Shown: piece after piece, positions 1,009 to 53,572 of the stretch
Numbering within the stretch: the first letter of the stretch is position 1
How the letters are laid out: every line of letters starts with the position of its first letter
Assembly (NCBI GenBank): GCA_965204375.1
Contig: OZ241986.1
Location: 5,632,001 to 5,696,000 of the forward strand
DNA length: 64,000 nt
Source: Candidatus Latescibacterota bacterium
Lineage (GTDB): Bacteria > Latescibacterota > UBA2968
Direction of reading: 5' to 3'
The notes under the pieces: model-generated
Told to the model about the DNA's origin: nothing
The model's database searches: none
What the model saw: the letters and a program-made list of their open reading frames with translations, nothing else
Made by a program: the position numbers and the translations under genes

Positions 1009-1641
1009 TTACTCAGCGGGTTGCTGTATGACGCGCAAATAGGGTTTTACAGCGGTGTATCCGGGGAAGCGTTCGTCGGCTTCTTCGTCTGTAACCGTGG
1101 GTGAGATGATCACGTCTTCGCCGGGTCGCCAGTTTACTGGCGTGGCCAAACTGTGTTTGGCTGTCAATTGCAGGGAATCGACTACGCGCAGGATTTCGTC
1201 GAAGTTGCGGCCCGTAGATGCCGGGTAGGTGAGCATCAGTTTGATTGTTTTGTCGGGTCCAATTACAAATACCGATCGCACGGTCAGGGTGTTATCTGCA
1301 TTGGGATGGATCATTTCGTAGAGGTCGGCTACCTGGCGGTCGGGGTCGGCGATCATAGGATAATTCACGGTTGCATTTTGCGTTTCGTTGATGTCGCTAA
1401 TCCAGCCTTCATGGGATTCGAGGGGATCAACGCTGATCGCCAAAACTTTGACGCCGCGCTTGTCAAATTCGTCTTTGATATTCGCCATGGCGCCCAATTC
1501 GGTGGTGCATACTGGCGTAAAGTCAGCCGGATGGGAAAACAGAATACCCCAGCCATCACCCAACCATTCGTGAAAATTGATGGTGCCTTCCGTGGTTTCT
1601 GCCGTAAAGTCGGGGGCAACATCGCCTAACTGCAATGACAT
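1009..1641 (-). CDS. 1-Cys peroxiredoxin (Prx6 family)
   Basis: FSHPADFTPVCTTE and YPASTGRNFDEILR motifs; start set at MSLQLGD (ATG 1641) after AAAGGA. Confidence 0.95.
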   Translation of the reverse strand: MSLQLGDVAPDFTAETTEGTINFHEWLGDGWGILFSHPADFTPVCTTELGAMANIKDEFDKRGVKVLAISVDPLESHEGWISDINETQNATVNYPMIADPDRQVADLYEMIHPNADNTLTVRSVFVIGPDKTIKLMLTYPASTGRNFDEILRVVDSLQLTAKHSLATPVNWRPGEDVIISPTVTDEEADERFPGYTAVKPYLRVIQQPAE

Positions 1642-49557: not shown

Positions 49558-51345
49558 TCATTTCTCATCTGTTGTTAAGTTTTCATCATCGTGCGTGACA
49601 TAGAGAAATGCGGTACACATTTCATCGGTCGATTTTTCGCCCCATCGCACCAGCCTGGGTGGATTGTTGGGGTTTCGGGGGTTGTCGGCAGAGTTGTCGT
49701 AAAAGGCTTCGAGCGTGATACGGGTGCCGCGCGGGAGTGCGATGGGTGTTTTGTACACGTAGGTTTCTTGCCAGTTAAAGTCCCAGGGTTTGACCCATAT
49801 TAAGGATTGTTGCGTGCCGCCGGGATAGGTTGCGGTTATTTTCATTTCCGTGCCGAGCAAGTGCATGTGAGGCAAGATGCCGAGCAGGTGCTGGTCGCGT
49901 GTGATGGTGATTGCGCCGGTTACTCTGTGTTGTTTGATGTTGGGTGGAATGAAGAGCAAACGGCTGTTGATGACTTCTTCGCGGAGTTGTTTTTGTACGG
50001 GTTTTTGGGCAAAGTAGATGCCCAGGCGGGAATGATCTTTTACGGCGCGGCCAATTTTGTGATAGTGGATCTGGAGGATGATGTCGCTGTTGGGCGGCAA
50101 ATCGCGGCCTATGCCATCTGGAAGAACAAAGGGGGTGTTGCCGGGTGCCCAGCCGCCCAGGGATTCGTAGATGGGTACGCCAATGCCGCCAAAGCAGGGG
50201 TATCCAGGCGAGGATGCGTTTTCCTGTTGCAGGCGCGCTTTGCCAGAGATGTCGATGTACACGCTGACGTGGTGGACGACTTCGCGCTCTCCGGGCAGGA
50301 CTTCAATAGCCGATACGTAGTTGCCCGTGTCCTGTTTTGTGGGCAAGACAAAGCAGCGGTATTCGTCGCGGCCCATGGCTTCGAGTGGATAGGGTGCTTC
50401 GGGTTCGAGGATCAGGTCGGGCGTGCCCAGGGTCCAGCTTTTGGAAAATGCGATGGGTTCGGGCTGGTCGGCGGGATTGCCCTGGGGCATGCCGCTGTTG
50501 ACCCATTGCGCGAAGGTGTGGATTTCGGCGTCTGTGAGTCTGCGGGAATTTTTGAAGTCGCCGTATTCGGGGCGCGCTTTCCAGGGTGGCATGATGCGGG
50601 CTTCGATGGAGTCGCGCATCTGATAGGCCCAGGCGAGTACTTCTGTGTAGTCAAAAAAGGGTACGCGACCGATGCCGCCGGGGCGATGACAGTTCTGACA
50701 GCGATTTTGGAGCAGGGGCAGGATGTCGCGATAAAATGTTGGGGTGGAGGTGTTCGCGACAGTTGTTTGCCGGGGAGTGCGTCTGATTTCACAGCCAAAA
50801 CTGGGGAGGCTGGTGTTGGCGATTTTGCGGTTGGCGAGTAGTGCATCAAGGGCGTCCCATAATCCGCGCGAGGTCGTATCTTCGGGGATGCCCCAGCCGT
50901 TGTCGATTTCGCCCTTGTAACGCAGGCGGCGCTGGGCGTCAAAGAGAAAGGCATGGGGGGTATGGGTCGCGCCGAGGTGGTCGGCGAGTTTGTTGTGAGG
51001 GTCGCGCAGGACAGTGAAGGGTACGGGGTTTTGAGCGTAGTGTTCTTTGATGTCTTTGTCGGTTTCGTTAAAATTGGCATTTACAGATATCAGGTGTACG
51101 CCTTTGGGGGCATACTGATCGTGTATTTTTGTTCGGTGTATGTCGTATTTGAGCGAGGCAGGGCAGACGACGGAACTGAAGATGATGACGAGTGCGCGGT
51201 CCTGGGATAAATCACTGAGGGTAACGGGCGAGCCGTTGAGGTCGGCAAGGGTAAAGTCATTGAGGGTGTCGCCGATTTGGAGGGGAGCGGCCCAGGGGCA
51301 AATCGGGAAGGCGAGAAAGAGTGCGATGACGAGAGGGCGTTTCAT
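49558..51345 (-). CDS. Redoxin + cytochrome c-like + copper type II ascorbate-dependent monooxygenase-like multidomain protein
   Basis: Signal peptide; CPAS..THTPHAF..YKGEID redoxin; CQNCH; VVHH, QIHYH, PHMHLLG, WDFNWQ and DEMC motifs. Confidence 0.8.
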   Translation of the reverse strand: MKRPLVIALFLAFPICPWAAPLQIGDTLNDFTLADLNGSPVTLSDLSQDRALVIIFSSVVCPASLKYDIHRTKIHDQYAPKGVHLISVNANFNETDKDIKEHYAQNPVPFTVLRDPHNKLADHLGATHTPHAFLFDAQRRLRYKGEIDNGWGIPEDTTSRGLWDALDALLANRKIANTSLPSFGCEIRRTPRQTTVANTSTPTFYRDILPLLQNRCQNCHRPGGIGRVPFFDYTEVLAWAYQMRDSIEARIMPPWKARPEYGDFKNSRRLTDAEIHTFAQWVNSGMPQGNPADQPEPIAFSKSWTLGTPDLILEPEAPYPLEAMGRDEYRCFVLPTKQDTGNYVSAIEVLPGEREVVHHVSVYIDISGKARLQQENASSPGYPCFGGIGVPIYESLGGWAPGNTPFVLPDGIGRDLPPNSDIILQIHYHKIGRAVKDHSRLGIYFAQKPVQKQLREEVINSRLLFIPPNIKQHRVTGAITITRDQHLLGILPHMHLLGTEMKITATYPGGTQQSLIWVKPWDFNWQETYVYKTPIALPRGTRITLEAFYDNSADNPRNPNNPPRLVRWGEKSTDEMCTAFLYVTHDDENLTTDEK

Positions 51346-51350
51346 TGTGA

Positions 51351-52040
51351 TCAAATGTTGCGTTTTCGCAGGTAGTCGATGAGAAAGATGAGTGTGACTA
51401 TTCCAAAAAATCCGGCGATTGATAGGGCGATGTAGTGGCTTTCGTTCGGGAGTCGCCAGTATTGTATTATAACAAATATAAGGGCGGGGACAAAGAAGAT
51501 GAGCGTGCCCAACAATGCATATATCGATTGTGTGGCGGGTTCTATTTGAGGCGTATCGCGAGTTGTGGGCTTTATGGTTGGAGGAGCCGTTTCGGGAGGT
51601 TTGACGCGGGCGAGCATTTCTATGACGTTTTTGCGATAGCTGTTGTCGGCAGCGGCATATACGCTCCAAAAGGCGGAGATTTCTTCGGCACCCGTGCGGG
51701 TAAATTTCTTTTCGAGTGCGCGTTTGCGCTCAAGAGAAAGTTCGGCGGGTGCTTTTTTTTCGTGTTTTCGAAGGTCGTCGAGAATGTGTGTGAGGCTGGC
51801 GTCGTACCCGTGAATCCAGGGATAGGTGGCGTGTTGGAGCAATTTTTCATCGGGGTTTGTGTCGCCAAATTCACGGAGATATGCGTCAATGAGTTTTTTC
51901 CGCTCGATTTTAGACCCTGCGCCGGGAAAGTGTTTTGCCCGCAATTTGCCGTCGCGTTGAAAGGGCAAATAGAGATGGTTGTGATCCGCTATTTCGAGGA
52001 TGCGTTTGAATGCGTTGATGAGCGTTTGGCGGTGGGACAT
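51351..52040 (-). CDS. Hypothetical protein with two C-terminal TM helices
   Basis: 229-aa ORF filling the operon gap; no family recognised. Confidence 0.65.
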   Translation of the reverse strand: MSHRQTLINAFKRILEIADHNHLYLPFQRDGKLRAKHFPGAGSKIERKKLIDAYLREFGDTNPDEKLLQHATYPWIHGYDASLTHILDDLRKHEKKAPAELSLERKRALEKKFTRTGAEEISAFWSVYAAADNSYRKNVIEMLARVKPPETAPPTIKPTTRDTPQIEPATQSIYALLGTLIFFVPALIFVIIQYWRLPNESHYIALSIAGFFGIVTLIFLIDYLRKRNI

Positions 52041-52107: not shown

Positions 52108-53418
52108 TTATCCGTTGACTGCTTTTCCAAAGCTTGCGACAAATATGAGAAAGTCGGGAAAGTCAACAGTGCCGGATCCGTCGAGATCAAAGGTTGCATT
52201 GGCCGTGCCAAAGGCTTCTGAGAATAGGAGGAAGTCATAAAAGTCAACGGTGAGCGAACCATTGAAGTCGGTGCGTGGGTCAGCGGGGACGAAGATGGCC
52301 GAACCGGTGATGGTCAGGCTGATTGAGGTTTTTTCCGGGTCGTTTGAGATTATGTCGATGGTGCCGGTAATTGGACCTGGGGCTGGCGGATTGAAAGTCA
52401 CGGTGATGTCCTGAGATTGACCGGGTGGCACTGTTAATTGGGTTTCTGAAAGCGCAATGCCCGCGATGTCGGATTGGATGTCTGTGATGTTGAGTGGGCC
52501 TGTACCAGTATTTGTGATGGTAAATGTTGTTGTGACGCCTCTGCCCATTTCGATTTCGCCCAGGCTCAAGTTTTCCTGAATTAGTGATATGGTCGGGAGT
52601 TGAGACGCTTCGATGGTGAGGTTGACAAAAGGGAACTCCAGGGCGCCAACACTTTGTTCGCCGTGTTGCAGGGTGATTTTACCCGAAAATGTGCCGGCTT
52701 GTGTCGGCGTCAGGGTGATTTGTAAGGTTTTGCTTTCGCCGGGTGCTATGGTCAGTGTGGATGGCTCCATTGTGATGCCTTCGGGAGCTGTGTATCCGGT
52801 GATTTCGAGGGGACCGGCACCGGTGTTTTCGATTTTAATTTCGACGGTTTTGGATTGTCCCACTTCAAGGGTTCTGCCAAAGTAGATCTCCGATGGGAAG
52901 AGGGAAATAACAGGCGTTTTGTTGAGTAGTGCATCGACTTGCGCGTTGATCAGGTCATGAGTGCCGGTGGCGATTGCTGTGGTCCTGAGGCGCAAGATGC
53001 CTCCCTGGTCGATGACGAGGATATCTTCGTTGCGAGTGCCGAGGGTTCCGGAGACGCCCGAGGCATTTGTGAGTAGCGGTGTCGTAACACTGGATTGTGT
53101 CAGATAGGATGTTGCCTGTGTGCGGTTGCCGTCATATCTGTCGAGTGTGAGGATCTGTATGCCGGTTTTGTCTTTGTTGCGTTGGTGAATATTTTTTTCA
53201 AAGGCGGGACCCGCCCCTATGCAAGTCCCTCAGTTGTAGCCTACAAAAAAGAGGACGGAGACGGTATTTGTCGAATGGCTGACGCCGTAAAACCTGCCAT
53301 CGGTGGCTTGAAGTTGAAATTCGCCTACTTGTTCGCCTACTCTGGGCTGGGCAAAAGTTGTTGTGCATAAGCCCAAAAATAGGGCGATAGAGAAAATACG
53401 CATTTGCAGGTGTTTCAT
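52108..53418 (-). CDS. Secreted redoxin (UxxC) selenoprotein with two Ig-like domains and a paired EF-hand/dockerin-like C-terminus
   Basis: The 62-aa ORF (signal peptide, FQLQATDG..VLFFVGYN) ends in TGA 53232-53230; the frame stays open (U-G-T-C..ILVIDQGGILR) and joins ORF 52108-52995; 436 aa in total. Confidence 0.85.
53200..53218 (-). promoter_or_regulatory. Candidate bacterial SECIS element
   Basis: After UGA plus an 11-nt spacer: AGGGGCGG-GUC-CCGCCUUU, with G23/U24 in the loop as in E. coli fdhF. Confidence 0.72.
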
Positions 53419-53572
53419 GGTGTTCCTCCATAAGGTGAGAGAATTGACCGCTGATTGCTAATATACTAAATCGCGTGCAAAATGTCACGGGGTTTGCGCT
53501 TGATTTTGGGGTTTGGTTTATCTACATTGTCTTTACGTTTCGAGTGTTCTGCGGTTCCCATTTTTTTCTTCT

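Follow-up and report, generated by a model that had tools for sequence, protein, structure and literature searches.

A probable exported selenoprotein joins a U-x-x-C redoxin to Ig-like domains and a dockerin-fold module in a Candidatus Latescibacterota genome

In a window of 64,000 nucleotides (nt) of DNA from a Candidatus Latescibacterota bacterium (assembly GCA_965204375.1, contig OZ241986.1, positions 5,632,001 to 5,696,000 of the forward strand), the reverse-strand segment 53418..52108 is divided by an in-frame TGA into two open reading frames (ORFs). We found that relatives of this segment keep the TGA, that the genome carries the machinery for inserting selenocysteine (Sec, U), and that a hairpin of the selenocysteine insertion sequence (SECIS) type follows the codon. 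Judged from sequence comparison, the locus is almost certainly a selenoprotein gene. The fuller statement, that the whole segment is one gene encoding an exported selenoprotein, is also very probable, details of docking and substrate being left aside.

Results

Read with TGA as Sec, the gene (53418..52108, reverse strand) comprises 436 codons followed by a TAA stop at 52108-52110. The ORF list gives its two parts separately, as a 62-aa ORF (53230..53418, reverse strand) that ends in TGA and, in the same frame, a 295-aa ORF (52108..52995, reverse strand). A preliminary description of the window had proposed that the shorter ORF stops exactly where the CxxC motif of a thioredoxin fold should begin, and that the frame then stays open into the longer one to give 436 residues. 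The ORF list and the translation bear out both points: the in-frame TGA is codon 63 (53230..53232, reverse strand), it stands in the context VLFFVGYN-U-GTC, and U63 is the only non-standard step among the 436 residues. Standard gene callers had been expected to split such a gene, and indeed all 25 public gene calls (295-371 aa) start after the TGA, none reaching it. The catalytic domain is thus lost from them, and the name that one of them bears, 'choice-of-anchor D domain-containing protein', refers to the Ig-like part only.

The TGA is kept by the relatives of the gene. In a six-frame search of 41 related genomes, residues 1-436 were matched in 20 of 20 congeners at 67-93% identity, with one TGA each; paralogues in other genera, at 31-47% identity, have one TGA too, and the codon is present in every match listed that spans residue 63. 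Because all 20 congeneric genomes share it, the TGA is not a read error, a point on which the preliminary description had advised caution. Across the phylum, a profile of the redoxin domain matched 105 of 168 genomes at E<=1e-15; by taxonomic family, the matches fell in 29 of 30 genomes of f1, 20 of 22 of f2, 2 of 3 of f3 and 52 of 76 of f4, and in 1 of 36 genomes of ten other families together. Among the matches listed, five have no stop, one has a TAA, one has a TGA and a TAG, and the rest have exactly one TGA; 25 further matches lie outside those listed. U-x-x-C occupies the same alignment column in 40 of 40 extracted loci, which were picked from matches already flagged with a TGA, and among 28 further domains from more distant families the column holds TGA in 23, TGT in 4 and TGC in 1. 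The preliminary description had left it to such a comparison whether homologues have Cys or TGA at this position; they have Sec (TGA) or Cys (TGT or TGC), and never Trp or Arg. The protein is conserved on both sides of the TGA, with F10, L12, G36, C42, D69, G73, V111 and G116 invariant in alignment A1, as is the Sec position itself.

The genome, a single contig of 6.34 Mb, contains all four components of Sec insertion that the preliminary description had proposed to look for. The tRNA-Sec (selC) scored 70.1 bits and was called tRNA-SeC, with anticodon TCA, by ARAGORN; selA scored 500 bits and adjoins selB (wing-3, 76.5 bits); and selD (368.7 bits), which adjoins tRNA-Sec, itself has one in-frame TGA, in the SCGG-U-ASK loop. 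TGA ends 717 of 1802 long ORFs of the genome and is the terminator of 14 of 35 genes in the redoxin family itself, and therefore has not been reassigned.

The candidate SECIS hairpin lies at 53200..53218 (reverse strand), at nt 15-33 counted from the U of UGA. As first described, it follows the UGA after an 11-nt spacer and consists of an 8-bp stem (9 bp including U14-G34) with an apical GUC loop that contains G23 and U24. Folded alone, it forms 9 bp at -11.0 kcal/mol (z -1.93; 12 of 200 shuffled sequences were as stable). Since clades differ by 1-3 nt in the register of the hairpin, an ungapped single consensus cannot capture it, and we used pairing counts within each clade and a hairpin scan of each sequence in place of an RNAalifold consensus. 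In the scan, every one of the 55 unique Sec forms had a perfect hairpin (4 bp or more) with its start between nt 11 and nt 20, and 22 distinct 5′ arms occur among them; 38 of these hairpins start at nt 13-14, and 43 have a free energy (ΔG) of at most -6 kcal/mol. At nt 22-25, the loop of f1 and f2 has GGUC, the letters that we take to occupy these positions in Escherichia coli fdhF as well. The present copy and f3 have one extra C on the 3′ side, which leaves the GUC triloop. In f4, where A-G-P gives way to A-E-A-A or S-R-A-E, other letters form the hairpin, which starts at nt 13-14 and has an AGG or a CGUGC loop. In the paralogue alignment A3, 79% of cells pair, versus 35-51% for slid partners.

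Synonymous recodings drawn from the codon usage of the genome served as a reference for stability. Against these, the Sec forms had a mean z of -1.67, with p<=0.05 in 25 of 54; the Cys forms had a mean z of -0.2, with p<=0.05 in 1 of 5. For the Gly of the loop, 18 of 21 rows use GGT, versus 24% genome-wide. A hairpin of 7 bp with a GGU loop is found in selD of the same genome, and four other redoxin genes of the genome with in-frame TGA codons have hairpins at similar distances. That stem letters are replaced across clades while the distance to the codon stays fixed is, on the sequences at hand, the strongest argument that the hairpin is a SECIS; the TGA column and the hairpin recur together in every relative examined, which is more than chance would give.

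Several observations weigh against this assignment. In a context of 43-61 nt, the minimum free energy structure is a competing helix (nt 4-12 with 19-27; -16 to -16.9 kcal/mol), which is exclusive of the hairpin and would bury G23. Because this helix is the more stable, the SECIS hairpin is identified by comparison with relatives and not by folding of the single sequence. RNAalifold, given 33 unique sequences, also chose a 5-bp form of the competing helix instead of the SECIS hairpin, and no pair of the helix so chosen shows a compensatory change in these sequences. Covariation of the hairpin in A3 is modest: double changes occur in 2 of 7 pairs, and 29 of 500 shuffles score at least as high. 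At p<=0.05, 29 of 54 Sec forms show no gain in stability over their synonymous recodings. The conserved Gly-Pro codons (GGN CCN) account for part of the hairpin in f1-f3, a residual hairpin is kept in some of the five Cys paralogues, and the hairpin of one orthologue, L033, is weak (4 bp). The sequences are related, and the counts are, accordingly, not independent. Finally, there is no bulged U17; in the present copy nt 17 is a G paired with U31, and in f2 paralogues it is an unpaired C.

The last point bears on the likeness to the fdhF SECIS, which the preliminary description had taken to be a match in geometry and which held in part. By the rules for E. coli as set out in the available text of PMC8659212, the hairpin spans nt 15-31, begins 11 nt from the UGA and exposes G23 and U24 in its loop. 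The spacing and the two loop letters are the same here. The present copy differs in its 8-9-bp stem, its 3-nt loop and the missing bulged U17, and the distant clades differ further, with a start at nt 13-14 (1-2 nt earlier) and AGG or CGUGC loops.

Other loci with related features were seen along the way. L092 (G036:C1:5119700-5124000) is a tandem array of three family genes in the order Sec, Cys (TGT), Sec; the Cys copy keeps the hairpin, with a GGCC loop replacing GGUC, and looks like a recent Sec-to-Cys switch. In genome G006, that of a congener, a paralogue (G006:C1:3769338-3770609) with two TGA codons and one TAA is probably decaying, and the weak hairpin of L033, the orthologue in that genome, has a stability of -4.6 kcal/mol; the family may be decaying there. 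The genome that contains the window has a selenium cluster (G000:C1:5302053-5303902) in which a TlpA-like gene with a W-U-G-C motif and an in-frame TGA is followed by the Sec-type selD and then by tRNA-Sec. Further AhpC/TSA matches with one in-frame TGA and a downstream hairpin each are found at G000:C1:3674373, 1766858, 414344 and 5441215; by type they are a PxxxTxxU peroxiredoxin, W-U-P-H-C, W-U-L-N-S and a paralogue of the present gene. Together with the two entries of the selenium cluster and the present gene, these four make at least seven candidate selenoprotein genes in the genome.

The domain that contains U63 (residues ~25-165; 52924..53346, reverse strand; active site U63-G-T-C66) is a TlpA/ResA-like, or peroxiredoxin (Prx)-like, thioredoxin-fold redoxin, and the redoxin initially proposed on the basis of the motif is supported by profile, predicted structure and structural search. 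A profile of 22 family domains matches Protein Data Bank (PDB) entry 2ls5 (E 5e-16), then 3kcm, 3hdc and ResA, with U aligned on the first Cys of CxxC in 2ls5, 3kcm and 3hdc. The AlphaFold2 (AF2) model of the domain has a predicted local distance difference test score (pLDDT) of 94.5 and places the site between a strand (29-35) and a helix (40-57); Foldseek returned for this model 2ls5 (TM 0.86), then DsbE, ResA, CcmG and some Bcp/AhpE peroxiredoxins. The match to Pfam AhpC-TSA (PF00578) is borderline in the present copy, at 25.4 bits (0.6 bit under the cut-off of 26), and reaches 54-60 bits in Sec relatives from f3 and f4 and 50.4 bits in a Cys twin, P0033. An exhaustive profile search of 1.84 billion representatives gave 19,612 relatives at E<=1e-3, 49 of them at E<=1e-30, and the 14 relatives fetched all have Cys at the site. 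Two of these metagenome proteins, P0033 (435 aa) and P0051 (440 aa), have CxxC and are laid out like the present protein, with redoxin, a pair of Ig-like domains and dockerin; others of the Cys relatives fetched have type IX secretion tails or tandem redoxins. None of these relatives bears an informative name.

TlpA, ResA and CcmG (DsbE) are the best matches of the domain in sequence and structure, and it shares with them a leader for export, a CxxC-type site at the N-terminus of helix 1 and, in the predicted model, a thioredoxin fold with a central insertion. It differs from them in having Sec in the position of the attacking Cys, G-[YHFW]-x where those proteins have W, no membrane anchor and added Ig-like and dockerin modules. 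It also differs in a feature of the fold. A cis-Pro opposite the active site is conserved in TlpA/ResA-type proteins, whereas in A1 no cis-Pro is conserved: no Pro is kept ahead of strand 108-112, and the Pro of 3kcm is aligned with a position other than Pro. Peroxiredoxins, for their part, are marked by PxxxTxxC(U) and a conserved Arg, and A1 has neither PxxxT nor an invariant Arg, and has an invariant Gly three residues before U. With both signatures missing, the chemistry can be assigned tentatively at most. We also considered U-G-T as a glutathione peroxidase (GPx) motif and dropped it, since paralogues have U-P-T and U-S-V. We call the protein, provisionally, a TlpA/Prx-like selenol-thiol oxidoreductase.

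Upstream of the ATG (53416-53418), at a distance of 6 nt, stands a Shine-Dalgarno-like GGAGG (53425..53429, reverse strand), which may act in initiation. Residues 1-23 (53350..53418, reverse strand) form a predicted signal peptide with a basic N-terminus and a hydrophobic core, which would be cleaved after FA and before QP; equivalents of this hydrophobic leader are present in every member of the redoxin family. The redoxin is followed by two Ig-like domains, the first of choice-of-anchor D/ASH/HYDIN-VesB type (residues ~168-265; 52624..52917, reverse strand) and the second of choice-of-anchor D/DUF1573 type (residues ~268-373; 52300..52617, reverse strand; best stretches 275-372 and 268-362). 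The Ig-like call of the preliminary description was thus well founded: the NCBIfam model choice_anch_D (NF012200; cut-off 45 bits) scored 106.7 bits over two stretches, and in Pfam HYDIN_VesB_CFA65-like_Ig (94.3 bits) and ASH (80.8 bits) likewise matched two stretches each, with DUF1573 also matched. A match to the NCBIfam 'OS_HP2 family (seleno)protein' model falls within an Ig-like domain, far below the cut-off and away from the TGA, and we regard it as irrelevant.

The C-terminal end, first described as EF-hand or dockerin-like, has the predicted fold of a dockerin (residues ~380-436; 52111..52281, reverse strand), in which a helix follows each of two EF-hand-like calcium loops. In the AF2 model of the last 70 residues (pLDDT 93.3), this EF-hand pair was recognized by two structural searches. 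The top 11 PDB matches of Foldseek are all dockerins (best 2y3n_B, E 1e-3, TMq 0.72), as are 14 of the top 16 among the 48,161 chains compared with VIA-align (best 2ozn_B, Z 7.0, root-mean-square deviation 1.5 Å over 52 residues). The sequence models speak less clearly for it, the cut-offs being missed both by Pfam Dockerin_1 (16.8 versus 22.9 bits) and by NCBIfam dockerin_GC (21.5 versus 29).

The module is not confined to this gene. Genome-wide, it has 73 matches, at the N- or the C-terminus of proteins; with 40 ORFs delimited, 4 of 20 carriers scanned pass Pfam Dockerin_1 at the E limit used. The cargo of the scanned carriers includes subtilase, matrixin, HmuY, pectate-lyase-like, Cys redoxin, leucine-rich repeat (LRR), WD40 and low-density lipoprotein (LDL)-receptor class B repeat domains, and is rich in peptidases and in such eukaryote-like repeats. 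Cohesin has four matches above the Pfam cut-off in the genome, and two of the modules belong to very long ORFs (1255 and 2207 codons) with FlgD_ig/Por_Secre_tail type IX sorting domains at their ends. When both giant ORFs were scanned whole, hmmscan listed no Cohesin; we relied on the excised segment, which scored 43.4 bits, and on the genome search, which was also positive. A large cohesin-dockerin system in a Gram-negative-type phylum is an observation in its own right (locus L099, G000:C1:4198500-4211500). Prediction of a complex of cohesin P0178 with dockerin alignment A4 and two Ca gave scores of 0.02 and 0.05 (mark 0.32), which we take as no call either way.

With the type I and type II dockerins of cellulosomes (2ozn_B, 2y3n, 2vn5) the module shares the predicted fold of a duplicated calcium loop and helix, and cohesins are present in the genome. 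The setting differs: the present host belongs to a Gram-negative-type phylum, its cargo (LRR, WD40 and LDL-receptor repeats, a haem binder and peptidases) is of a non-cellulolytic kind, its module stands at either end of the protein, and its binding to cohesin would follow by analogy.

In the sister family f4, a FlgD_ig/Por_Secre_tail type IX tail replaces the Ig-like and dockerin parts in all five Sec-redoxins scanned; the enzyme is thus meant to leave the cytoplasm. In one protein, at L078 (G115:C25:22500-25800; 651 residues), the Sec-redoxin and the type IX tail share the frame with a serine hydrolase domain of the beta-lactamase family (216 bits). The redoxin has thus been coupled time and again to devices for export and surface display. 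The evidence on location has a weakness: for a form with only a signal peptide, such as the present protein, our analysis identified no route across the outer membrane; nor did it identify an electron donor.

The gene order within the genus is conserved and comprises a divergent tetratricopeptide-repeat (TPR) gene, the selenoprotein gene, a 229-aa protein and a fusion of a redoxin with copper-monooxygenase-like domains; synteny within a single genus is too shallow for a functional link, and says little. The 229-aa ORF (51351-52040, reverse strand), directly downstream, has a hydrophobic C-terminus and no match in Pfam or NCBIfam, and is present at 74-92% identity in 19 of 19 congeneric loci. 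Two genes downstream, 49558-51342 (reverse strand) encodes a signal peptide, a Redoxin/AhpC-TSA domain (51 bits), a weak haem-binding or cytochrome-c-like stretch and the two halves of a Cu type II ascorbate-dependent monooxygenase (Cu2_monoox_C, 30.5 bits; Cu2_monooxygen, 24.4 bits, below the cut-off), an unusual fusion whose position is conserved within the genus. Elsewhere in the window, at ~1240-1626 (reverse strand; G000:C1:5633240-5633626), there is a strong AhpC/TSA match (114.6 bits) with no internal stop. DNA nearly identical to the segment is found in three sequencing runs from a single study, possibly its source. Relatives of ~94% identity occur in runs labelled sponge metagenome, RNA libraries included. 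One contig from an RNA library, X9 (~94% identity), covers 52110-53444 across the TGA; such contigs can carry DNA, and this one is proof neither of transcription nor of the codon that the relative has there.

The preliminary description had counted redoxins with U-x-x-C among known selenoproteins, and they are indeed catalogued. In their available text, the reviews and surveys PMC13188914, PMC9312934 and PMC2398784 list a 'Prx-like thiol:disulfide oxidoreductase' (PF00578; UxxC/UxxU), a 'Redoxin family protein' (PF08534; UxxC), a 'UGC-containing TlpA family' and several fusion forms, and, for the ocean-metagenome selenoproteome, groups 'Prx-like 1-3' and 'Redoxin family protein'. By the rule of domain plus motif used there, the present protein falls in the Prx-like thiol:disulfide oxidoreductase class, a placement made by that rule as the available text gives it and not by reference sequences. 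With this class, as described in the same text, it shares the AhpC/TSA-type fold, Sec as the first residue of UxxC, Cys homologues and a SECIS just downstream; it differs in its signal peptide, two Ig-like domains and dockerin (in the sister family, the type IX tail). None of the NCBIfam selenoprotein models covers the redoxin domain, the best being redoxin_TUGYCR at E 0.03. The available text of PMC13188914 mentions neither Gemmatimonadota nor dockerin nor choice-of-anchor, and Gemmatimonadota are likewise not in that of PMC9312934 and PMC5029168. A literature search by title and abstract, with subscription journals and PDF supplements outside its scope, gave nothing on selenoproteins of Gemmatimonadota or on selenoproteins with a dockerin. 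The architecture, which the preliminary description had not recognized as described, is nevertheless not unseen, because the unnamed Cys versions P0033 and P0051 share the four-part layout. The protein is a new architectural and phyletic variant of a catalogued kind of selenoprotein, and not a new kind.

Discussion

We propose that the UGA at codon 63 is recoded to Sec during translation, and that selenium would thus be incorporated at this codon. SelB carrying Sec-tRNA(Sec) would bind the hairpin 11 nt downstream, with G23 and U24 exposed in the apical loop. A ribosome standing over nt 4-12 would block the competing helix, so that only the SECIS hairpin would be available. The product would have a cleavable signal peptide and a TlpA/ResA-like domain in which the selenium of U63-x-x-C66 attacks from the N-terminus of helix 1, with the two choice-of-anchor-D Ig-like domains as a spacer and a calcium-type dockerin at the C-terminus. 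In this scheme the protein would work outside the cytoplasm as a selenol/thiol-disulfide oxidoreductase. Its dockerin would hold it on a cohesin-bearing scaffold with a type IX tail, beside some 60-70 other dockerin-tagged proteins that include peptidases, a haem binder, pectate-lyase-like proteins and proteins with eukaryote-like repeats.

The alternative that survives best leaves the selenoprotein as it is and changes its chemistry: a Prx/GPx-like peroxidase acting at the cell surface against peroxides of the host or the environment. The best Pfam family is AhpC/TSA, one source names the Cys relatives 'peroxiredoxin', there are weak GPx profile matches along with the structural matches to Bcp and AhpE, and the ~94% identical relative comes from runs labelled sponge metagenome. 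The U-x-x-C motif, however, is that of thioredoxin and TlpA; the residue three places before Sec is Gly and not the Thr of peroxiredoxins, and the invariant Arg is missing; and the strongest matches in sequence and structure are to reductases of the TlpA/ResA/DsbE type. We regard a peroxidase as possible, with the odds against it.

A little less probable is that the protein stays in the periplasm as a TlpA/ResA/CcmG-like reductant for the maturation of cytochromes or copper proteins, with a tail that merely binds calcium or mediates oligomerisation. In the present copy a Sec-type signal peptide is the sole export signal, a type IX tail being absent, its closest solved relatives are periplasmic maturation reductases, and the redoxin/copper-monooxygenase-like fusion two genes downstream keeps its place within the genus. 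Sec forms in the sister family and Cys relatives elsewhere, however, carry type IX tails, with which they would cross the outer membrane; the tail of the present protein has the predicted fold of a dockerin; cohesin modules occur on proteins with type IX tails; and the synteny, limited to one genus, is of little weight.

Both of these accept Sec at codon 63. Read-through with another residue (near-cognate Trp, Cys or Arg, or a local reassignment) could be argued from the departure of the hairpin from the E. coli consensus, with no bulged U17 and with loops that vary by clade. We consider it very unlikely, given a complete Sec machinery in the genome, a position that is the catalytic Cys of CxxC and as such a classic site of Sec/Cys exchange, a hairpin maintained at the distance expected for SelB, other in-frame-TGA redoxins and a Sec-type selD with similar hairpins in the same genome, and the use of TGA as terminator by 14 of 35 family genes. 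Least tenable of all is a true stop, with a gene for a 62-aa peptide followed by a separate 295-322-aa 'choice-of-anchor D' gene, or a pseudogene: gene callers and public records do give the downstream piece only, and TGA is a common terminator in the genome, but the stretch after the TGA is conserved as protein and completes the thioredoxin fold, homologues with a Cys codon are uninterrupted, and four taxonomic families, along with paralogues of ~30% identity, retain the TGA column, as a decaying pseudogene would not.

For the exported selenoprotein that we favour, the consequences reach beyond the locus. The mis-annotation touches 1-8 genes per genome in 105 of the 168 genomes sampled from the phylum. 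In a phylum outside the selenoproteome reviews searched, as far as their available text extends, Sec and not Cys appears to be the default state of an exported redoxin, which makes the family a good place to ask what favours selenium in oxidising, extracytoplasmic settings. Bacterial SECIS models could be refined with the help of its hairpins, a natural series of variants that overlie differing amino-acid sequences, and the combination of a selenoenzyme with dockerin, cohesin and type IX display offers a testable handle on cohesin-dockerin systems that are not cellulolytic. More speculatively, one class of Gemmatimonadota, relatives in sponge metagenomes included, may run a cell-surface selenoenzyme system of Sec-redoxins that are either tethered by type IX tails or plugged in through dockerins. 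If so, these bacteria would carry out extracellular redox chemistry without a cytoplasmic supply of electrons, alongside peptidases and eukaryote-like adhesion proteins, for example by opening disulfides in host matrix or mucus proteins or by removing host oxidants, and the present protein would be the first selenoprotein subunit of a cohesin-dockerin assembly.

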